Shown here in pieces: positions 12,089-23,569 of a stretch of 23,572 bases of DNA. This DNA comes from Bdellovibrionota bacterium (GTDB lineage Bacteria > Bdellovibrionota_C > UBA2361 > JBGSMV01). Position 1 is the first letter of the stretch. Every line of letters starts with the position of its first letter. The position numbers and the translations under genes were made by a program. Under the pieces are notes generated by a model. It was not told the origin of the DNA. It saw only the letters and a program-made list of their open reading frames with translations, and searched no databases. Where the stretch lies: assembly GCA_044356455.1 (NCBI GenBank), contig JBIKWF010000066.1:1-23572 (forward strand). Direction: 5' to 3'.

Positions 12089-12889
12089 ATGACTGAGAGC
12101 CCTCCCCACCGAACCGCGCGCCCCGCACCTTCCCAAGATGATGAGGGCTGCCCCGAGTGTCACAAGTCTCCAGCGACTTGCGTCTGCGATGTCCTCCCGA
12201 GTGCATCGCTCACTCCGCGGACAAGAGTTTTAATTCTTCAACATCCCCAAGAACCGGACAAAGTTCTCGGCAGTGCCCTGCTTGCACAGCGCGTGCTTAA
12301 GGGAGCGGTGCTTAAGACCGGCCTCTCGTGGCGAAATCTCTCGGCCGCTCTAGGCGAAGAAGCCACGTCCCAGCGCTGGGGAGTTCTTTTTCTTGGGACC
12401 CAAAAGAGTTCGGCCTCAACTGCGGGGAAAAAGCCGAAGGCAGCGGCCCCTCGCGAGGAGGAACCCTTAGATGTGCTGGAGTCGCCATCTGCTACTCAGC
12501 AAGAAGTCACCGTGCTCTCTCCCAAAGGTGGTCCGCGTGATGAGCAGGGTCTCGACGGAATTGTGGTGCTCGATGGCAACTGGAGACAAGCGAAGGCCCT
12601 CTGGTGGCGAAATGCCTGGCTTCTGAAGCTGAACCGGATCGTGCTGAGCCCCAAGAACCCTTCTCTCTATGGATCTTTGCGCCGAGAGCCGCGCCGGGAA
12701 AGTGTTTCATCTCTTGAGGCCATTGCGCTCTCACTTGGCGCGCTAGAAGAGTCCCCCGAGATCAAGAATGCGCTTCTGTCGCTTTTTAGAAAGTTTCTTC
12801 AGCGCTGCAGAGACTCAGGCGTGAAGCCTTCAGCTCCACCGAGGCACAAGGGAAGACCACGGCGCGGCCGCGCTCGCACCCCTAGGTAG
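12089..12889 (+). CDS. DTW-domain protein, putative tRNA-uridine aminocarboxypropyltransferase (TapT/YfiP-like)
   Basis: CPECHKSPATCVC, ILQHPQE, VVLDGNWRQAKAL, LRREP...SSLEA. Confidence 0.88.
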   Translation: MTESPPHRTARPAPSQDDEGCPECHKSPATCVCDVLPSASLTPRTRVLILQHPQEPDKVLGSALLAQRVLKGAVLKTGLSWRNLSAALGEEATSQRWGVLFLGTQKSSASTAGKKPKAAAPREEEPLDVLESPSATQQEVTVLSPKGGPRDEQGLDGIVVLDGNWRQAKALWWRNAWLLKLNRIVLSPKNPSLYGSLRREPRRESVSSLEAIALSLGALEESPEIKNALLSLFRKFLQRCRDSGVKPSAPPRHKGRPRRGRARTPR

Positions 12890-12911
12890 GGCGCCGCGTC
12901 CTCGCGGTGCC
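12890..12911. terminator. GC-rich hairpin between convergent genes
   Basis: GGCGCCGCG-TCCT-CGCGGTGCC immediately after the DTW gene stop; no clear U-tail. Confidence 0.35.
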
Positions 12912-13016
12912 GAAAGATCTCTCAAGTCCCTCGATTCTGCCGGAATTCTAGGGAGCCCTAAAAAATCCCACTCTGTGCACTCTGTGGTTGATTGAAATTG
13001 TTGAACAGCCGTGAAC

Positions 13017-13561: not shown

Positions 13562-13804
13562 TTACGCCGCCTTCCTGATCGCTGCTTCCCTGATCGCTGC
13601 CTTCCTGATCGCTGCCTCGGCTTCCAAATGTGCATTTCCTCCGTACTCTCCATTAATCTGCATGCGCGCCGCATCGACGAAGGCTCTTAGCTGGCCAAAG
13701 CTCGTCTCGGTTGAGTAACCTTTGATCGTCCCTTCAGGACGTTGTATCTTGAGGCCCTCTAAGTGTTGGGCAGGGTGCTGTGCATTATTTGTGGTTTTGA
13801 TCAT
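13562..13804 (-). CDS. Hypothetical small protein (80 aa) with AAIR(K/E) repeats
   Basis: GGAGAAGAGG SD before ATG; closely coupled to the downstream ORF. Confidence 0.65.
   Translation of the reverse strand: MIKTTNNAQHPAQHLEGLKIQRPEGTIKGYSTETSFGQLRAFVDAARMQINGEYGGNAHLEAEAAIRKAAIREAAIRKAA
13569..13613. repeat. 3 x 15-bp in-frame tandem repeat
   Basis: GCCTTCCTGATCGCT / GCTTCCCTGATCGCT / GCCTTCCTGATCGCT. Confidence 0.9.
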
Positions 13805-14042
13805 AGCTTACCTCTTCTCCCCATATCGGCGAGATGAAGAATCCTGCTTCAGGGCCTAACTATCTGTAATTATTGACCTGCGGCTCTTTCTAGAGATGTT
13901 TGCAGGGAAAATGCGTAGCTCTCGAGGCCGATCTCGAACCCACGACCATGGGAGATGGAGCCCCCTCTAAGCCTAATCGCTCGCCAATAGGTGAACCATT
14001 GCTGGGAAGACGTTTCGTGGGGGAGCACCACTCATGCGCCTG

Positions 14043-14062
14043 AGTTGATGTCGTATCCCTCA
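14043..14062. repeat. 20-bp direct repeat of the sthA 3' end (left copy, att-like)
   Basis: AGTTGATGTCGTATCCCTCA versus AGTTGATGTCGTATTCCTCA at 19085-19104 (19/20). Confidence 0.8.
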
Positions 14063-14350
14063 CCTTTTTCTCTCTGAGGCCTCGCGCGACGTAACCATCC
14101 GTGACCATTCATCCTCGCTTGGCATCTACCCAGTATTTCGCGCCTTTTAGTGGCCCATTCGAGAACAAAACAGATCTGGATGGAGCTATGGTGGAGCGGG
14201 AATAGCTCATGGAGTGCCTAAAGATAGTGCAGGGATGAGCATTCTTTACGCTATCGAAGCATCAAAGAACGCTAAACTGCCGCATTCAGATCTGCGGCGC
14301 CAGTCGTTTCAACAGCTTAGAGTGCGCCACGTCTCAGAGACAAATGGTGG
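14063..14350. mobile_element. 288-bp MITE/REPIN-like element, copy 1 (family A)
   Basis: Direct repeat of 18766-19053 (7 substitutions and no indels by manual alignment); inverted ends TTTCTCTCTGAGGC ... GTCTCAGAGACAAA; internal hairpins. Confidence 0.8.
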
Positions 14351-14480
14351 GCAGCATTTTGCAGGTTACTATACGTCATTGCAGGTTCGACCCCCATGCA
14401 AGTTAACAGAAATTCGATTGGTCTATGCCTAAGGTTAGCAGAATCCACTCAACTTCGTGCAAGGTTGGGGCGTACCAATT

Positions 14481-14645
14481 GGGACCGGCCTCGCTGATCA
14501 GAGCAACAGCGAGCTCCGTAGACTCGTCGAACAGGGAGGTGTCTCGATCGGCGGAACAAAGATCGCTGATCCAGCGACTACGATTAAACTATCGGTAGAT
14601 GGCCTGCTTCAGGTCGGAAAGCGGAATTGGTTTAAACTGAATAAG
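14481..14645 (+). pseudogene. tyrS: 3'-terminal fragment of tyrosyl-tRNA synthetase (S4-like domain)
   Basis: GLADQSNSELRRLVEQGGVSIGGTKIADP...LLQVGKRNWFKL matches the TyrRS C-terminal S4 pattern; no catalytic domain or credible start upstream. Confidence 0.8.
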
Positions 14646-14653
14646 CAGAATCG

Positions 14654-14750
14654 CCCGCGGCCTTGTCCACCTCAACATTCTCAAGCCTTCCGCGAGGGGC
14701 TGTTCCAGTGAGTTCAGTGAGTTAGATTGAAAATAGTTGGGGTGAACAAG
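14654..14750. repeat. 97-bp palindromic element, copy 1 (family B)
   Basis: CTTGTCCACCTCAAC-ATTCTCA ... TGAAAAT-A-GTTGGGGTGAACAAG; 86/97 identical to 16711-16807. Confidence 0.9.
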
Positions 14751-14827
14751 ACGTGAGGTTACGCTGTGCCAACTTCTCTCCATAACCGTGCTGCAACCCG
14801 ATTGAGGGATTAGAATAGGCGGCGATT

Positions 14828-16657
14828 ATGGGAATAGAACCTTCGAGGCGGCCGTCTGACCATCTTACTGTCGACAGAGTGGCCACAATTCTAGATTCGA
14901 TCCCACTTGTTGGCCCCACCTTGCCTGCGCATATCCCTATCGAAACGCGAGAACGGCCGACAATTGATGCCGTCAATAACCTCATTAAAGAATGGCAGAA
15001 TGAAAGGATTCGCGCCGAATTGCAATCTACCCTATCGACCATAAACAATGTGCGCAATCCATCCGAACTCGGGACCTTGGTTGACTACCTTACCAGATGC
15101 CCCAAAGAGCGAAGCAGTTTCATCATTACCGGCCCTGGATTTTCTGATTCCGTTAGCTTTGAAAGACGAATCCAGACTCCCTGCGGAGAACTTGAGAGGG
15201 GCACGAAAGTTGTACAAGACATCATTGATTTCAGCGCATCCATGACCGAACGGATACTAAATCTTCCGGAAGGCAAGGCAAAGGAGACTGCGTTAAGGGT
15301 GAACGAGTTCCCGCGCGGGTGGCAAGCTGCGCTAGAGCAGATCAAGACTCAGAGTGACGATGATTCGAGAGACGAAGCGATGCGGCTCGTCCGCCGGATC
15401 GGTCTCCACTACGAGGTTACTCGAATCAGAGTTGAGGCTGAAAATTTTCGCTACAACCCCGTGAGCTCGCTAGCCTTCAATGGGAATCCATTTTTTCTCA
15501 TAGAAAAAGCGGCGTCCAAGATTAAGGACGAACTGATGCGCCATCCAGCGAAGTTAGATCCGGACACGGTTCGCCATGTAACCGACACTTATCGCGACGA
15601 TATGGTTAGGCGCGTTATAGAAAGCCCAGATCCTGAGGGCGAGATGCGCTGTCAGGAACTTCTTTCGTACGGATTCCGAAATCAACAGGGTGGCATCGGA
15701 TCACTTTTGGCCATGCGTAAGGTTAGCGTGCGAGAGGTAACCCATCTCGCTAAGAAGCAAGACGCAGTCGCATGGACTGCCGATGAAACACAATCCTATC
15801 CGACTACCAATGAGATTATCGTGGAGACAACGCCACTTGTGTTGTGCGCAGAGTCTTTCGAGGATACAGAGAGGCTGAGGTCGTTCTCGGCCGAAATTGA
15901 GACCATTTGGAGTGGGATTGTCGACCCCAGACGGAAGATGAGAGACATCACTGATGACGAGCTTCATCGGACCGCTCCTGCCCTACTCGCCGCAGTCGAA
16001 GATTACTATCCGGGAGTGTCCGATATTCTCGCCGGAGTTGCGAGCCAACTGACCTTCGCTCCAGTCAAGGAATGGCCTGCCGCCATGCAGATCGCCAATT
16101 TCATCGGGCTCTTTGAAGAACTACGGGAGGAACTTAGCACGATGGATCGCGAGGGGCGGCAACGAGTTGCTGAGTGGCTATCGGCTCTCACGGCACCCCA
16201 AGAACAAACAACCTTAATCGACCTGGCGGAAACACTCCCTGTTTGGACAGCGGTGGGCAGTGCGCCAGCTCAAGCCACTCCAGTACTTGGCGATCTCCTT
16301 GCGCTCGCGGAGAGTAACCCAGTCTTCTATCGTGGCTCAAAATCGACTCTTCACGCTGCATTCACTCTCCTGACACCCCAGGGAGTTGAAACCGTTGAGC
16401 AGTTGATTGAAGAGCGACTCCTCGCTGTTGATGGTGTTACCCCCTCAAGTGTACTTGCTATGAATACTCGTTCGGTCGAGGACATCCGCAAATTCATAAA
16501 CCAGCAGGTGGACGCTATTCCGCCGAAGGCTACGACGCGAGAAGTTGAAAAGCGGGGGCTACTTCGTCTTTATAATTTCGAGAACCCCGACGCCGACTGG
16601 AACGCAGCGACCGCCCTCGCGACTTCAAGTCCATTGTGGGCGAAACTGGTCGATTAG
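14828..16657 (+). CDS. Hypothetical protein (609 aa), no recognised family
   Basis: Long uninterrupted ORF with ATG start; appears soluble and helical; no motif recognised. Confidence 0.8.
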   Translation: MGIEPSRRPSDHLTVDRVATILDSIPLVGPTLPAHIPIETRERPTIDAVNNLIKEWQNERIRAELQSTLSTINNVRNPSELGTLVDYLTRCPKERSSFIITGPGFSDSVSFERRIQTPCGELERGTKVVQDIIDFSASMTERILNLPEGKAKETALRVNEFPRGWQAALEQIKTQSDDDSRDEAMRLVRRIGLHYEVTRIRVEAENFRYNPVSSLAFNGNPFFLIEKAASKIKDELMRHPAKLDPDTVRHVTDTYRDDMVRRVIESPDPEGEMRCQELLSYGFRNQQGGIGSLLAMRKVSVREVTHLAKKQDAVAWTADETQSYPTTNEIIVETTPLVLCAESFEDTERLRSFSAEIETIWSGIVDPRRKMRDITDDELHRTAPALLAAVEDYYPGVSDILAGVASQLTFAPVKEWPAAMQIANFIGLFEELREELSTMDREGRQRVAEWLSALTAPQEQTTLIDLAETLPVWTAVGSAPAQATPVLGDLLALAESNPVFYRGSKSTLHAAFTLLTPQGVETVEQLIEERLLAVDGVTPSSVLAMNTRSVEDIRKFINQQVDAIPPKATTREVEKRGLLRLYNFENPDADWNAATALATSSPLWAKLVD

Positions 16658-16710
16658 AAAGAGTTTGCTCGTGTCGTAGAGCTCAAGTCATCAATGCGAG
16701 TTTCATAGCT

Positions 16711-16807
16711 CCCGCGGCCTTGTCCACCTCAACATTCTCAGTCCTCCCGCGAGGGTCAGCTCCAGTGATCTCAGTGCATTAGATTGAAAATAGTTGGGGT
16801 GGACAAG
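16711..16807. repeat. 97-bp palindromic element, copy 2 (family B)
   Basis: CTTGTCCACCTCAAC ... GTTGGGGTGGACAAG arms; same orientation as copy 1. Confidence 0.9.
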
Positions 16808-17260
16808 GGCGATGGAGGCCGCCTGTCGCAGCACCCTTCCGTTCACACGGTTCATGCCACTTCAATACGCTTACAGCATTCTACTGCCCATAACCAAGAT
16901 TGCTCCATCAGCTCATATGGTTAAATTGAGTTAACTATCCTTCTAAGTTTCCGCAGTTACGAGACGATGGGTCGGTCTCTCAGTTAACTCAGACGAGGAT
17001 TGTCTTAGATCAAGACGCTGGTAGCGCCATCAAAGGCCCGGGCAGAGCAGATGTAATTATGGGCAGAGGCGCAGGCGGCAGCTAATCGGCCGTATGAAAC
17101 GGGTGAGTTGTATTACCTATTGCTGAAGAAGTAGCGCCCGACATTCGCACATTAAATTAAAAGCTTCACAATAGTTAGGGGAACAGTTCGACTTTCGCTT
17201 TAGTAGAGTCGGACCCAATGTTATCCTATTGGGCTGGTGCTTAATTAAAGCTTGGCGCAA

Positions 17261-18730
17261 ATGGCTAACGAACCTAAATCTGTCACTTCGGGTGTCAAAA
17301 TCCCTTCAGATCATGTGCGCACCGGCATTAACGAACCGGGACTTCCGCCAGGATTACGCCCAGCGATCGCTGAATGCAGAATTCAGACGGCCAAATTGAA
17401 GCCAGAGCATTACATTCCAGCTGCAGAACTACTTCCTACTTTTCGCGAATACATGCAGTTGGCGTTGTATCACCCGAAATTCGGCTATTACTCAGCAGCC
17501 AAGGTGCAGTTCGGAAAAGATTTCATTACGTATCCGATCGCGCTATCCCCGAACTTTGGGGCGATGCTGGCCGAGCATGCATTTCGCATGAGAGGGTAGC
17601 TCTTGAAGCAAGGATTATTATCCAGTGACGAGTTCTTTCAAGTTAGCGAATTTGGATGTGGCGAAGGCGTGCTTGCACGCGACTTTTGCAGAGCAGTTAG
17701 TAGTCGGTCTCAGACGGATCCCGAATGGGAACGTTTTCGGCAGTCACTGTGTTATCAAGCTGTAGAGCAGTCGCGGTCTTTATGCGAAAGAATCGAAAAA
17801 AACCTAGATGGCACCGATGTTAGGTACGGGGTTTTGAATAGTGACGCCGTTAGCTTTATGAGGAAAGCTCGATACAGCCTGGGCAAAGGCCTGGTTATTT
17901 CAAATGAGCTCGTCGACGCATTCCCAGTAGAAATTTTTCGCAAAAGCGAAAATGGTGTTGACGTAACGCATGTAATTCCGAGAATTCGCACTCGGGTCTT
18001 AGCTGGGCAGGCAGAGTTAAGAGAATCAGCGATAGCGGGAAATAGTTTGGTCCGGGCAAAACTCGGTATTCCGGATTCTGTGATGTCTGAATCTTTCTTA
18101 CTTGATTCAAGATCGCTGCGTTCAATTCTTGATTCACTCGGCGAAATATCTGGCGCGGACCGCGCGATTGTATTAGAGGGACTCAGCTTTATCGAGACCT
18201 CAGTGCCGCTAGAAGATCATCCTCGCATCCGCGGCACGCTAAAGACTTATATTTCTGCGGCTAAAGCTCAACCCAATTTTTTGGGCTCGATTCTTCCACC
18301 TGATGCGGTGGAGTTCTTCTCGGGAATTCAATCGAAACTTAAATGTGGATATGTTATCACTGTGGACTACGGTGGCCCATTTGCTGAGATTCAAGATCGA
18401 TTTCAGCGATATGGCGTCAATGCTCGAACGTATTGCAACGGAACAACTCATCTCTCTCCGTATCAGCGCTTTTCCGATCTCGATATTACTTCGAATGTGG
18501 ATTTCAGCTATTTGAAATGGCTTGGCTTCCGTCATGGCCTAGACCAGGTACATTTCGGTCGCCAGTCTGACCTCTGCGCTGGACTCGACCCTTGCTTTAC
18601 AGACCAAATCTTAGCGTTAAAGCGAAAATGCGCTAAGAAATTCTTTCAAGGGAACCGTTTCAAGATGTTGATTCAGGCTACTCAGAACGTTGAGGCTCGT
18701 CCTGGCTGGCCGCTCCTGGGGGCGGTTTAG
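17261..18730 (+). pseudogene. SAM-dependent methyltransferase, MidA/NDUFAF7 family, interrupted by one in-frame TAG at 17597-17599
   Basis: TFREYMQLALYHPKFGYY, DFITYP and FGAMLA lie before the stop. EFGCGEG, ISNELVDAFPV, ITVDYG and DITSNVDFS lie after it in the same frame. Confidence 0.85.
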
Positions 18731-18765
18731 TTTAAAGTCCTCCCCTTTTTCCCCCCTTCCCCCCC

Positions 18766-19053
18766 CCTTTTTCTCTCTGAGACCTCGCGCGACGTAACCA
18801 TCCGTGACCATTCATCCTCGCTTGGCATCTACCCAGTATTTCGCGCCTTTTAGTTGCCCATTCGAGAACAAAGCAGATCTGGATGGAGCTATGGTGGAGC
18901 GGGAATAGCTCATGGAGTGCCTAACGATAGTGCAGGGATGAGCATTCTTTACGCTATCGAAGCATCAAAGAACGCTAAACTGCCGCATTCAGATCTGCGG
19001 CGCCAGTCAGTTCAACAGCTTAGAGTGCGCCACATCTCAGAGACAAATGGTGG
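18766..19053. mobile_element. 288-bp MITE/REPIN-like element, copy 2 (family A)
   Basis: Direct repeat of 14063-14350; ends TTTCTCTCTGAGAC ... ATCTCAGAGACAAA. Confidence 0.8.
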
Positions 19054-19082
19054 CGGCACGCTCTTTAACAACAGGTAGATCC

Positions 19083-20525
19083 TTAGTTGATGTCGTATTC
19101 CTCATGCGGCGCTTCGTCGGGAAGCCCCTGAGTTGCAACTACCTTGTTCATGCCATCGAGCGCTGCCGTTCGATAGGCCTGACCAAGCGTCGGGTAGTTA
19201 AAGACGGCATGAGAAAGATAATCAATGCCGCCCTTAAAGCCCATCACCGTTTGGCCCACATGCACGAGCTCTGAGGCGCTGTCGCCGATAATGTGAACAC
19301 CAAGAAGCTGCAAGGTATGGCGATTAAAGAGTAGCTTAAGAACTCCCGAGTCATCGCCAACAATCTTCCCGCGCTCGATTTCACCAAAGCGGGCAACACC
19401 TACCTCATAAGGGACTTTCTTTTTCGAGAGCTCTTCTTCTGATTCGCCAACCATCGCCATCTCTGGAATGGTGTAAATTCCATAAGGAATGGGGAGCCCG
19501 AAGCCGACGTCTGAGAGTTTTAGCGCGTGGCACGCAGCACGCCGACCTTGTTCTAGCGAGGTGGAGGCCAAGGAAGGCGCACCTATTACATCACCTACCG
19601 CATAAATATTTGGAACATTTGTCTGAAAATGTTCGTTCACTTTTATGAGCCCGCGCTCGTTTGACGCAATGGATGCAGCCGCAAGGTTAAGTCCTTCGAC
19701 ATTACCTACGCGTCCTGCTGATACCAGAAGTACCTCGGTCACTATGCGCTTTCCACTTTCAAGAAAGGTAACCGCGCGGCCATCCGGAGAACGCGCGCAG
19801 CGCACCACTTTATCATTGGTGACCACAAGCACTTTTTGCTCTCTCAGCTTATAGACCAGAGAGTCCACGAGTTCTTTGTCCACGAAGCCAAGAATGCTCG
19901 GACGCGCCTCAACGAGCGTCACTTTAATACCGAGGGCAGCAAACATGGAACCGTACTCGCATCCGATCACACCACCACCCACAATAGAAATATTCTTGGG
20001 AAGGTGCTTCATGTGCAAAATGGAATCACTATCGAGAATTACCTCGCCATCGAATTCAAATCCCGGTGGATGCCAAGGACGAGTTCCTGTGGCGATAACG
20101 ATAAACTCTGTAAGGAGTTCTTGACTTCGATTGCGCAGAGTAACCTTGACGCGGTTCTTATCTACGATAGAGCCGAACCCTTCGAGCACTTCAATGTTGT
20201 TGCGAATGAGCTGAGATCGCATCGTCTGCTCGATATCCTCAACAATACTGTCAGTTCTTCCCGTAAGATCCTCCATGAGGACCTGCTGCTTTACGCGGTA
20301 GGCCTTCCCGTAGTGGCTACGTTCTCGGTAACCAGAGAGATGTAAGATCGCCTCGCGAAAGGACTTACTCGGTATGGTGCCGTCGAAGAGACACGCCCCA
20401 CCCACCTGAGCTCGGGCGTCAATAATCGCTACCCGTTTGCCAAGTTTCGCGGCCTGCATCGCGGCTTTTTGCCCGCCAGGACCACTCCCAATAACCACCA
20501 TGTCGTAATCGTATGTGCCCGCCAT
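19083..20525 (-). CDS. sthA: Soluble (Si-specific) pyridine nucleotide transhydrogenase
   Basis: GSGPGGQKAAMQAAKLGK, GGACLFDGTIPSKSFRE (single Cys), GGGVIGCEYGS, GIYTIPE, VFNYPTL. Confidence 0.93.
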   Translation of the reverse strand: MAGTYDYDMVVIGSGPGGQKAAMQAAKLGKRVAIIDARAQVGGACLFDGTIPSKSFREAILHLSGYRERSHYGKAYRVKQQVLMEDLTGRTDSIVEDIEQTMRSQLIRNNIEVLEGFGSIVDKNRVKVTLRNRSQELLTEFIVIATGTRPWHPPGFEFDGEVILDSDSILHMKHLPKNISIVGGGVIGCEYGSMFAALGIKVTLVEARPSILGFVDKELVDSLVYKLREQKVLVVTNDKVVRCARSPDGRAVTFLESGKRIVTEVLLVSAGRVGNVEGLNLAAASIASNERGLIKVNEHFQTNVPNIYAVGDVIGAPSLASTSLEQGRRAACHALKLSDVGFGLPIPYGIYTIPEMAMVGESEEELSKKKVPYEVGVARFGEIERGKIVGDDSGVLKLLFNRHTLQLLGVHIIGDSASELVHVGQTVMGFKGGIDYLSHAVFNYPTLGQAYRTAALDGMNKVVATQGLPDEAPHEEYDIN

Positions 20526-20641: not shown

Positions 20642-22462
20642 GTGCAATCTTCTACGGCGCCTCAATCTCTCGCTTCTTCTCAGAAGCGAAGCGGCTCACT
20701 TTTTATCTCTGCTAAACACCTTACAGCTTCAAGCACATGCGCCGTACTTGCGCTGTCTCTTTCATATTCAAACTATAGCTATGCACAGGACACCGCGGTT
20801 GCAGTACCCGCCTCCGCAGCTGCGCACATTGATGCTTCTCCCCTGCCCCTCGAAAAGACGAGCGCCTTCGGGACCGCTCTGCGTGCGCATTTTGGGAATT
20901 CACCCTACCCTCCGCCCCCAAAATCGGCTGAAGCTTTGAACTCCGCAGATCTTTCAGCACAGACGTTGACTCCGACAAAAAGCGGCGCTCGCGACCTCTC
21001 GCTCAGTGACGCGATACTTCTGTCCCTGGCACAGAATCCTTCCTTTGCCATTACACGCCTCGCTCCATCCCTTGCAGAACAAGAGGTTCTTAGCGCCAAA
21101 GCCATTTACGACACCATTGTTCGTGCAAACGCTGCAACATCTCGAGATGTCGCCCCCAGCGAGTCCTCTCTCTCGGGTACGAAAATTACGACAGAGCAGG
21201 CAACTGGCACTCTTGCGCTCGACCAAAAGCTTCCCACAGGTGCGGACCTCTCTCTCGCCTGGGATAACTCTCGAACAGAAAACGATGCTCGTTTTACGAG
21301 CCTAAGCCCAGCCTACCGCAGCTCCCTTTCGCTCTCATTGAGCCAGCCCCTGCTGCGCGGCACTGGCTGGGGAGCCCCCGGCGTTCTTATTCGCATCGCA
21401 CGCTCGTCGAGCCAGGTAAGCAAAGACCTCTATGAGAGCCAGGTCGCCGACCAAGTTCGGCAGGTAGTTCAGGCCTACTGGAGCGAGGTGCGCGCGCGCG
21501 AGCTCGTCGAAGTTCGCAAACGCGAAGTTGAGCTCTCAGAGCGGCTCCAAAGCGATGTGGAAGAAGGAGTTAAGGTAGGACAGCTTGCCCCGCTTTCTTT
21601 GAGTGAAGCGAATGCACAAATTGCACTGAGTAGAGAGCAACTCATTGTCGCAGAGAACCAACTCCTCGCCGCCGGACGCACTCTTCGGCAAATTACCGGA
21701 ATTGACTTTATTACCGGAGAGAACGGGCTTTCAGACTTTGCTCCCCTGCGCGCAAGTGATCGTCCTGAAGTAATAAAGGTAACATTTGATCCTAACCAAA
21801 GCGTCGAACTCGCTCTCGCACACCGCGCCGAATTACGAGCTCAAAAAGAACGCCTGCGATTGGCAGAGCTCAGTGCGAAATTGGCATCAAATCAGGTACT
21901 GCCCGAGCTCAATCTTGAAGGACGCGCCGGACTTCAGGGCCTCGCGGGCACTGACCGGGGAACAGATAGCGCCTTTGGCGGGTCGGCCAGCCCCTACCAA
22001 GGTGGCTATGGAGATGCTCTGGACGATGTAGGATCAAAAGACTTCTACGACTACACGGTTGGGCTTAGATTAAGAATGCCCCTGGAGAACCGGGAAGCTC
22101 GTGCTGAATTTAACAGAAAGAAAATTGGGCTGCTCTCAGAGCAGCATCGCCTACGCGCCCTTACCCAGAGCGTAATCGAAGAAACCCTTGCTGCCATTTC
22201 ATCCCTTGAAGCAAGCAGCAAGCGCGTCAAAGCAGCTCAAGAGGCCGTTGCCTTCTCGCGCCAGAGCCTTGAAGTCCAAAGAGACAAACTTAATGCCGGG
22301 CTCGCTACCGTACGAGACATGCTGGAGACCCAGCGAGATTTTTCTGAAGCTGAACTGCGCATGGCTGAAGCGCTCACTGACTTTAGCACTTCGCTTTCTG
22401 AGGTACTTCGCGCCCGAGGAGAACTTCTTGAACACTACCACCTAAAGGTTGATGTCCTGTGA
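20642..22462 (+). CDS. TolC-family outer membrane efflux protein
   Basis: LSLSDAILLSLAQNP, LSLSQPLLRG, VVQAYW, NQVLPELNL, GLATVRDMLETQ; signal-peptide-like segment ending in SYA-QD. Start uncertain. Confidence 0.9.
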   Translation: MQSSTAPQSLASSQKRSGSLFISAKHLTASSTCAVLALSLSYSNYSYAQDTAVAVPASAAAHIDASPLPLEKTSAFGTALRAHFGNSPYPPPPKSAEALNSADLSAQTLTPTKSGARDLSLSDAILLSLAQNPSFAITRLAPSLAEQEVLSAKAIYDTIVRANAATSRDVAPSESSLSGTKITTEQATGTLALDQKLPTGADLSLAWDNSRTENDARFTSLSPAYRSSLSLSLSQPLLRGTGWGAPGVLIRIARSSSQVSKDLYESQVADQVRQVVQAYWSEVRARELVEVRKREVELSERLQSDVEEGVKVGQLAPLSLSEANAQIALSREQLIVAENQLLAAGRTLRQITGIDFITGENGLSDFAPLRASDRPEVIKVTFDPNQSVELALAHRAELRAQKERLRLAELSAKLASNQVLPELNLEGRAGLQGLAGTDRGTDSAFGGSASPYQGGYGDALDDVGSKDFYDYTVGLRLRMPLENREARAEFNRKKIGLLSEQHRLRALTQSVIEETLAAISSLEASSKRVKAAQEAVAFSRQSLEVQRDKLNAGLATVRDMLETQRDFSEAELRMAEALTDFSTSLSEVLRARGELLEHYHLKVDVL

Positions 22463-23538
22463 TCCAAAGCCCCCACTCTCCTGAGAAACCAAGCCGTGAC
22501 CCTGCCTCTGCAGCAGATCTCTCGCGTCTTCGAATCGACCGAGTTGACACGGCCGCGGAATCGAACGGGCAGAACTCATCCCACTCTGTTCGCTGGTATG
22601 TGACCTGGGGCGCCTCATTACTGATTGGGGGAATGCTTCTCGGACGATTCGCGCTGAGTCCGCGCACCACCGCTACCAATCCTCCCTCTTTGTCCATGAG
22701 CGCCGCCTCCTCATCTCAGCCAGTTCCCCCTGCACAAGGAGCGGGGTTGTCCGCCTCAGGCTATGTCGTGGCCCAGCGTCAAGCGGCGGTGGCATCTCAG
22801 GCCACAGGCCGCCTCAAAGAGTTACGAGTGGAGGAAGGAGACAAGGTTAAGGCTGGAGATATTATTGGCGTTATTGAAAACGAAGGCCTCCAAGCGGCGG
22901 TGCGTCAAGAAGAAGCAAGCCTGCTGAGTGCCGAGGCGCGCATCGACTCCGCTAAGGCCGGACTTGCCGAGGTGGCTCTGCAGAGAAAACGCATCTTTGA
23001 TCTCTATGAGCGCAAATCAGTTTCTCAAGCAGAAAAGGATACCGTCACCGCAAGTTATGAGCGTGCCCGAGCGGAACTAGCCTCCGCGGAAGCCACTGCA
23101 GGTCTCGCGCGCGCCAAGCTTGACCGCGCCAAAGTTGAGCTTGGGTATAGCTATATTCTCGCCCCCTTTGACGGCACCGTACTCACCAAGAATGCTGACG
23201 AAGGCGAAGTAGTAGCCCCCTTTGGATCTTCCGCAAATGCGCGTGCCGCCGTGGTAACCATAGCTGACATGAGTTCGCTTGAGGTAGAAGCGGACGTTTC
23301 TGAAGCGAATCTCCAGCGAGTTTCCGTGGGCCAAGCCTGCGGCATTACGCTCGACTCCATACCCGGCAAACTCTATGAGGGAGTAGTGAGCAATATCGTC
23401 CCCACCGTAGACCGGGCTAAAGCAACCGTACTCGTAAAGATAAAATTTAAAGAACTCGATGAGCGTGTCATTCCAGAGATGAGTGCACGCGTTACCCTTA
23501 GCCTGATCATCTCACAGCCCCCAAGGGCTGTGAGATGA
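22459..23538 (+). CDS. Efflux periplasmic adaptor (membrane fusion protein, HlyD/MacA-like), C-terminus derived from a repeat
   Basis: SASGYVVAQRQAAV, VEEGDKVKAG, ILAPFDGTV, LEVEADVSE, PEMSARV; GTGA overlap with the TolC gene. Confidence 0.92.
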   Translation: MIQSPHSPEKPSRDPASAADLSRLRIDRVDTAAESNGQNSSHSVRWYVTWGASLLIGGMLLGRFALSPRTTATNPPSLSMSAASSSQPVPPAQGAGLSASGYVVAQRQAAVASQATGRLKELRVEEGDKVKAGDIIGVIENEGLQAAVRQEEASLLSAEARIDSAKAGLAEVALQRKRIFDLYERKSVSQAEKDTVTASYERARAELASAEATAGLARAKLDRAKVELGYSYILAPFDGTVLTKNADEGEVVAPFGSSANARAAVVTIADMSSLEVEADVSEANLQRVSVGQACGITLDSIPGKLYEGVVSNIVPTVDRAKATVLVKIKFKELDERVIPEMSARVTLSLIISQPPRAVR

Positions 23539-23569
23539 TCAGGCTAGCTAACGCCCGGATGGCGTTAGC
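23499..23569. repeat. Twin-hairpin REP-like element, copy 2 (family C)
   Basis: Perfect 22-bp stem TAGCCTGATCATCTCACAGCCC-CCAA-GGGCTGTGAGATGATCAGGCTA, then a perfect 9-bp stem GCTAACGCC-CGGAT-GGCGTTAGC. Confidence 0.92.

Follow-up and report, generated by a model that had tools for sequence, protein, structure and literature searches.

Closest described systems

Short repeats that depend on a transposase encoded elsewhere, and gene ends displaced by incoming DNA, have both been described in bacteria. Both bear on an island at positions 14039-19104 of a 23,572-nucleotide (nt) stretch of Bdellovibrionota DNA (contig JBIKWF010000066.1; the whole stretch is hereafter the window), in which two families of miniature elements with terminal inverted repeats (TIRs), named A and B, form nested direct pairs behind the gene sthA. 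In the TIRtron/TIRYT group (TIRtrons, Di Nocera et al. 2013, PMC3733652; TnpA-Y1 class 2, Quentin et al. 2018, PMC6006769), RAYT-like Y1 genes are bounded by TIRs, and copies of these TIRs form repeat families, often as dimers or clusters. REPINs are small non-autonomous elements that fold into hairpins, share their ends with the borders of a Y1 gene (the RAYT) and occur in local clusters (PMC3116915). In TIME-COMP and IMU arrangements, two non-autonomous copies of 200-300 bp bound a cargo, the transposase acts in trans, and direct pairs have been proposed to arise by circle integration (PMC13367494). Homology-facilitated illegitimate recombination and the 3'-displacement arrays of type VI secretion system (T6SS) and Rhs genes combine a homologous anchor on one side with a non-homologous joint on the other; in the arrays, older pieces and orphan 3' ends are pushed back stepwise (PMC5361080).

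The island behind sthA has about an even chance of being a foreign mosaic, set between the two miniature TIR families, that was built by stepwise additive integration and not by one insertion.

Three direct pairs behind sthA

The window is contig C16 of the host genome, G000 (4.7 Mb, 216 contigs, 93% complete). Below, C-numbers denote contigs of G000, other G-numbers related genomes, L-numbers loci, and X1-X6 six sequencing runs, of which X1 is possibly the source run of the assembly. Three direct repeat pairs, which an earlier note on this DNA had placed and spaced correctly, are nested in the island and are three different things: element A, element B and a displaced end of sthA. Pair A (14057-14350 and 18760-19053; 294 nt, 97% identity) has a spacing of 4703; within the 288 bp that the earlier note had delimited, A1 and A2 show 7 differences (2.4%), at most 84 nt apart. 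Pair B (14654-14750 and 16711-16807; 97 bp, 89% identity) has a spacing of 2057. The outer pair (14039-14062 and 19081-19104) is identical at 22 of 24 positions, or at 19 of the 20 first noted. The nesting is asymmetric: the left outer copy touches A1, and on the right a unique spacer at 19054-19080, to which no strand is assigned, keeps A2 and the outer copy about 30 bp apart.

On the right, the outer copy belongs to sthA itself and comprises the last seven codons of its coding sequence. sthA encodes the soluble transhydrogenase (19083-20525, minus strand; NF003585, 605 bits against a cut-off of 465), and the SthA proteins of relatives end near the same residue. The left copy, a displaced copy of the last sthA codons on the minus strand, reads EGYDINS against the native EEYDIN-stop, and its cut 5' side adjoins the outer end of A1. 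Genome-wide BLASTN returned the pair at an E-value of 0.002 and no third copy, and its alignment score is 38 against a maximum of 30 among 324 mismatched flank pairs; the pair is not due to chance. Scrambled stretches of 8-9 nt to the left of 14039 that match sthA were put down to chance. A target-site duplication was rejected on account of the offset at the right and of single elements, none of which has a flanking repeat above the null (0 of 28, 18 of them in relatives and 10 in G000; one more was left out because its flank was too short). Because the A1-A2 composite exceeds the flank null and single elements do not, the outer pair is a displaced gene end tied to the composite and is not what insertion usually leaves behind.

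The island interior is a single 4525-nt contig in X1, with the same single-copy depth as is seen over the left flank, and each of the four A junctions is represented among the X1 contigs. The joins of A to sthA and of A through tyrS to B1 are confirmed by X4 and X6. The whole island is spanned by no single record, and its phase through A rests on the assembler; X1 depth is lower on the sthA side (5-8 against 9.4), and one X2 contig connects the left flank of the C211 copy of A to the right flank of A1. X6 has no cover over 16738-18660, which at such depth proves nothing.

Element A and its putative Y1 partner

Element A, present twice on the plus strand, is a non-autonomous TIR element with a TCTCTGAGAC-like core at both ends. 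Its arms are imperfect TIRs of 28-30 nt, and it has no coding capacity and no Pfam match in any frame; tblastx against 30 loci of the C42 type described below likewise gave no match that could be a transposase remnant. A pyrimidine tract sits outside the left end of A1, and iterated C/T units (about 18741-18765) precede A2. A reading of A as a folded hairpin was rejected (z -0.58). A third copy on C211 is truncated and interrupted by another small element. Other lake metagenome runs show at least three additional sequences beyond the right end of A and one additional sequence beyond its left end; A is thus joined to several different flanks and therefore moves on its own. Three of the four flanks of A from other runs were sought in G000, and none is there; among five loose-end flanks, four are not in G000 and one maps to C91, in what may be a chimeric contig. 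An exact 24-nt A pattern had no match in the JGI metagenomes, which possibly do not cover the host's own records. A strain about 96.6% identical (record 32 of X6) has A at the same site behind sthA, and this level of strain identity is comparable to the 2.4% difference between A1 and A2.

The earlier note had proposed non-autonomous repeats served by an enzyme encoded elsewhere, to be sought by a genome-wide search for transposase genes with the same ends. Such Y1 genes exist in G000 for the ends of both A and B, which are TIR elements. For A, the counterpart is an element on C42 that encodes a 309-aa RAYT-like Y1 transposase (L022:1447-2373) and has ends resembling those of A. Relatives of this protein were found in 32 of 41 searched genomes, including G000, and number up to 8 in one genome (G018), and C42-type elements are bounded by the conserved inverted core TCTCAG[A/T]GAC. 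A matrix built from 52 ends at 41 loci of such elements, taken from relatives only, ranks the four A ends of the window and the C211 end 10, 22, 26, 45 and 106 among 9.39 million G000 positions. Sister elements of about 295 bp with A-type ends lie on C169 and C177, and an A-family element of 419 bp (C33:28-446) holds one small open reading frame (ORF) that by eye resembles a Phd/YefM antitoxin.

Like TIRtrons, this genome combines TIR-bounded Y1 genes with TIR-derived repeat families. Unlike in TIRtrons, the A core TCTC[A/T]GAGAC does not fit GGGGWSAS, the TIR motif of TIRYT subclass 2.1, and the C42 protein, a member of a widespread clade with multiple copies per genome, carries H-I-Q in place of HuH and Y---QA in place of Y---NP. 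The proteins on C29 and C84 carry HuH and Y---NP. A C-terminal helix-turn-helix (HTH), a further mark of subclass 2.1, was looked for in the C42, C191 and C140 proteins, which have long C-terminal tails, without a match to any HTH family; NF047646 and PF01797 scores of the Y1 partner proteins are mostly under the cut-off. The available TIRtron accounts (PMC3733652, PMC6006769) differ from the present case in that here direct pairs bracket kilobases of foreign DNA, and the literature searched, with incomplete coverage, holds no report of TIRYT-type elements carrying or bracketing cargo.

Y1-type terminal units are tandemly iterated outside or across the TIR at several places (L071, L083, L108, C23:2421, C29:5041-5078, C42 and window 18741-18765), and it is possible that these iterations are a footprint of end-joining chemistry. 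At C90:1-416, a C42-type element is represented by its left end and initial codons, followed by sequence resembling what we take to be the end pattern of a group II intron.

Element B and the third B-type end

Both copies of B lie on the plus strand. B1 is a short hairpin with imperfect 15-nt TIRs at 14662-14676 and 14736-14750, and B2 folds with a z of -4.35; B has no Pfam match in any frame. The right part of a third B-type element occupies 14377-14480 (plus strand), with its end motif at 14463-14477 and related copies on C88, C31 and C19. The B end motif is found at 26 G000 sites, three of which are directly upstream of Y1 genes on C29 and C88. A link between B and these transposases is suggested by one near-identical pair (C29/C88) in G000 and is weaker than that of A. 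The motif, GGGGTG[A/G/C]AC, lies one base out of register with GGGGWSAS and does not match it. As in REPINs, the elements form hairpins, have ends that flank Y1 genes and cluster locally; in the available description of REPINs (PMC3116915) the clusters are tandem or adjacent, whereas here the copies are 0.6-8 kb apart, have genes between them and lack GTAG-type REP palindromes.

B was also compared with integron attC sites and does not fit them. It reads CCTCAAC / GTTGGGG. The attC core consensus is RYYYAAC / GTTRRRY, with pairing that ends at the crossover; B fails this consensus and pairs about 10 nt beyond the would-be crossover. G000 has an integron integrase on C92 (L024; TIGR02249, 428 bits), and an 83-bp direct pair near it looks like attC sites.

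Foreign cargo

The cargo is foreign and mostly debris. The earlier note had correctly named a tyrS fragment, an orphan ORF and a split methyltransferase, and had overlooked an mltA fragment, an IS91-like end and the third B-type end; it was also right that neither the island ORFs nor 50 stop-to-stop frames contain an integrase or transposase domain. The 3' fragment of tyrS (14481-14648, plus strand), with an S4 domain, starts right after the B-type end and is 75% identical over 51 aa to a 415-aa TyrS-like protein of G034. A host origin was rejected, as the score against host TyrS is 47 and the shuffle maximum 46. The orphan gene (14828-16657, plus strand) encodes 609 aa that match no Pfam or NCBIfam family and for which the Atlas is blank. 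It is a real gene, since one remote full-length relative (P0009, 26%) exists among 1.84 billion representatives.

Downstream of B2, 16818-16941 (plus strand) is the downstream end of an IS91-family element, 74% identical to two places in G023, one of them directly behind an IS91-type transposase ORF; we take it to be the oriIS side. A 3' fragment of mltA (16943-17136, plus strand), with a 3D domain and an 8-bp deletion, begins directly at this end. It is closest to mltA of G034 (69% DNA identity), and no mltA was found in G000, which is 93% complete. The last cargo gene (17252-18730, plus strand) encodes a Methyltransf_28 (MidA-like) protein of 491 codons. It is split by one in-frame TAG at 17597-17599, without a frameshift, and the stop is also present in X2 sequence. 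The 90 genomes of the order yielded neither the orphan gene nor a close match to the methyltransferase. G023 and G034, the genomes closest to the cargo pieces, are members of a single family that is not the host's. In G000 the cargo is single-copy and found at one site only.

Recurrence of direct pairs in the genome

The direct pairing seen in the window recurs throughout G000. After a whole-genome self-comparison, a refined count was made of repeat loci whose closest relative lies 0.2-12 kb away. Among A-type loci this holds for 4 of 10, among B-type loci for 8 of 15 and among G-type loci for 13 of 32 (25 of 57 in total). G-type ends are those found on either side of two Y1 elements, one on C84 and one on C140, that are 94% alike. 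All 25 nearby pairings are direct and none is inverted; they form 12 distinct clusters. Among the controls, the corresponding counts were 5 of 365 for an IS5-type miniature inverted-repeat transposable element (MITE; direct) and 2 of 40 for a 65-bp hairpin family (inverted), against a random null of 0.36%. Direct pairing is far above chance, contrary to the concern, raised with the original proposal, that abundant repeats would pair by accident.

The nested layout recurs at C19:46660-49376, C23:1-6230 and C73:8056-15995, with duplicated native sequence outside and direct TIR pairs or ends inside. At C211:29500-50250, C100:890-7130 and C51:11230-16810, 3-6 direct TIR elements separate single large orphan ORFs in cassette-like arrays. 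A screen of low-copy near direct pairs gave 45, of which 8 coding-coding pairs were left out, 13 are TIR elements and 24 are TIR-free; the outer pair of the window is below the cut-off of this screen and was not counted there. In six of the 24 TIR-free pairs, a Y1-type end lies no more than 200 bp from an inner edge, against a null of 1.2-2.3% per interval. Comparable duplications (56-145 bp, 75-94% identity) occur at many unrelated genes, and no integrase ORF was recognised by eye among the ORFs that they enclose. One geometry is shared by sthA/A1, tyrS/B-end and C19: the 3' piece of a gene starts where a TIR ends on its outer side and is oriented away from that TIR. Between displaced and native gene pieces, 26 of 56 differences fall at third positions (p 0.03), counted over six hand-picked coding pairs, with C101 left out for a doubtful frame and paralog pairs excluded. 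Such an excess would be expected for alleles of another lineage.

Proposed stepwise additive integration and its rivals

In a stepwise scheme, incoming DNA from a related lineage would pair by homology on one side, either with sthA or with a resident copy of A or B. The other joint would form where a TIR has its outer edge; a Y1 transposase supplied in trans would probably make it, a role that we infer from sequence. The resident piece, whether a gene end or an element, would be displaced to the far side. Every step would leave behind a single direct repeat, 24-300 bp long and diverged to the degree seen between alleles, later steps would nest within earlier ones, and a layer could be lost by RecA crossover between repeats. 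Stepwise additive integration would account for the direct orientation, the allele-level divergence, the variable repeat length, the gene ends at TIR edges and the nesting, and is the simplest single account, with local, strand-biased hopping as its main rival. It has in common with the T6SS and Rhs arrays one homologous anchor, one non-homologous joint and displaced 3' ends; it differs from them, as far as they are described in the available text (PMC5361080), in that their joint is not tied to a mobile-element end, whereas here the joints coincide with TIR ends and housekeeping genes provide the anchor.

Several observations weigh against this account. No empty site near sthA, for which the earlier note had suggested a search, was found in relatives. 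Neither a joint left by loss of a layer nor a circle junction (4703 or 2057 bp) was found in the contigs of the six runs, over a depth that is flat across left flank and interior; contigs drop rare variants, hence this is a weak test. The core used to collect the matrix ends was picked after the likeness to A had been seen, and both A ends have TCTCTGAG where most autonomous ends have TCTCAGAG. B-type ends were found at none of 29 loci of C29-like transposases (proteins about 40% identical) in relatives, and the activity of C42- and C29-type enzymes on A and B ends is only predicted. The argument from orientation is tempered by the unclassified near repeats, among which direct pairs likewise predominate (57 against 11). 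For eighteen of the 24 TIR-free pairs no TIR was recognised in the vicinity, and one of the other six pairs is in fact a degenerate B end. The third-position signal comes from three of the six pairs (C19, C35 and C169), and the pair in the window contributes 0 of 2. Finally, the absence of flanking duplications above the null at all 28 single elements implies that ordinary insertion does not make such repeats.

The main rival, which is judged fairly unlikely, holds that the elements place copies of themselves close by, always in one orientation, by single-strand transposition at the replication fork in a neutral region that was variable before; the pairs would enclose cargo that they had not themselves moved, and the sthA duplication would be an unrelated recombination scar. 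The several different flanks of A fit local hopping, and HUH Y1 enzymes of the IS200 group are described as targeting the lagging-strand template (PMC6006769) and REPIN clusters as arising by insertion beside existing copies (PMC3116915). All four copies of the 14464-type element lie on negative-skew strands. However, when pair orientation is set against GC skew there is no strict strand rule, because A-family ends (5 negative and 3 positive loci) and Y1 genes (6 against 4) occur on both skew signs. Local hopping also leaves unexplained why gene-end duplications abut TIR ends and cargo fragments start at them.

A composite MITE transposon, in which a transposase supplied in trans would move or excise A-cargo-A, with B-cargo-B inside, as one unit, is improbable. 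It would resemble TIME-COMP and IMU in holding cargo between two direct copies of a non-autonomous element; A1 and A2 share 97% identity and have kept their outer TIRs intact, there are autonomous partners, and direct MITE pairs of MITESen1 have been proposed to result from circle integration at a resident MITE (PMC13367494), a process that overlaps with stepwise additive integration for the A and B layers. According to the same source, TIME-COMP and IMU have ends of the Tn3 family, use a DDE enzyme and produce target duplications of 5-6 bp. Here, in contrast, the ends are Y1-type and not of the Tn3 family, no short target duplication (5-6 bp or other) flanks the outer A ends, the pairs are never inverted, a displaced gene end lies outside, and the cargo unit is found at one site, not at more than one. 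The 24-bp repeat is offset at the right, and the contigs of the six runs, weak as that test is, held no joints. The earlier idea of gene capture is supported as far as foreign cargo and direct pairing are concerned, but its coherent unit with layers excising as circles is not: A and B point to different transposases, and A moves alone.

A decayed integrase-type island is very unlikely. The 24-bp repeat would be its attL/attR core in the sthA 3' end, the integrase would have been lost and the MITEs would have come later. A gene 3' end duplicated at both borders is the classic pattern of integrase islands, and such a core (22 of 24) does lie at both borders here; G000 also has four tyrosine recombinases, one of them within a 46-bp perfect pair on C172. 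Against it, the island ORFs and frames hold no integrase remnant, A1 abuts the left copy exactly, and similar duplications occur at the unrelated genes noted above. A tRNA att site was also rejected: ARAGORN found none, and Rfam gave one chance match only (E 0.5). Least credible of all is an assembly artefact, by mis-phasing through the 294-bp repeat, or an origin of B as an attC site: the lack of a spanning contig, the X2 contig joining C211 to A1 and the lower X1 depth on the sthA side are outweighed by the four A junctions and single-copy interior in X1, the two joins confirmed by X4 and X6, and A1/A2 differences spaced at most 84 nt apart, and the integron integrase of G000 and the AAC..GTT cores of B by its poor fit to the attC consensus and its excess pairing.

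Surroundings of the island

In the same-genus genome G001, the flg-DTW-ORF180 order is kept and other genes lie beyond, and a gene that by eye is murJ-like follows sthA. In G004 (L125), the DTW gene lies two genes from a relative of the window's membrane-fusion gene (22459-23538); this arrangement hints that the interval of 12.9-20.6 kb in the window may be variable within the family. Between the DTW gene and the 180-aa ORF, the repeat ends at 12885-13005 are of very high copy (summed X1 depth 524) and probably belong to an IS5-type MITE. An 80-aa ORF at 13562-13804 (minus strand) has no relatives in G000 and a 15-bp triple repeat at its end. A 65-bp hairpin family, which served as a control, is represented at 2648-2712 and 23499-23563 and at about 40 G000 loci.

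Implications for the host and its order

It may be suggested, tentatively and as somewhat doubtful, that TIR-flanked, TIRYT-like Y1 transposases, together with their miniature elements, act as a system that captures genes without an integrase. One joint, at a TIR end, would be made by the enzyme and the other by host recombination, and repeated rounds would build nested, cassette-like arrays of foreign genes at the ends of housekeeping genes chromosome-wide. G000 and its order have multi-copy, TIR-bounded Y1 elements together with miniature derivatives that have defined ends, and at about a dozen loci such derivatives bracket foreign DNA in one orientation. As the enzymes and DNA ends can be named and the junctions predicted, a direct test is feasible. 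The importance of the finding lies in this genome-wide signature and in testable pairs of enzymes and ends, and the island's own debris cargo matters little.

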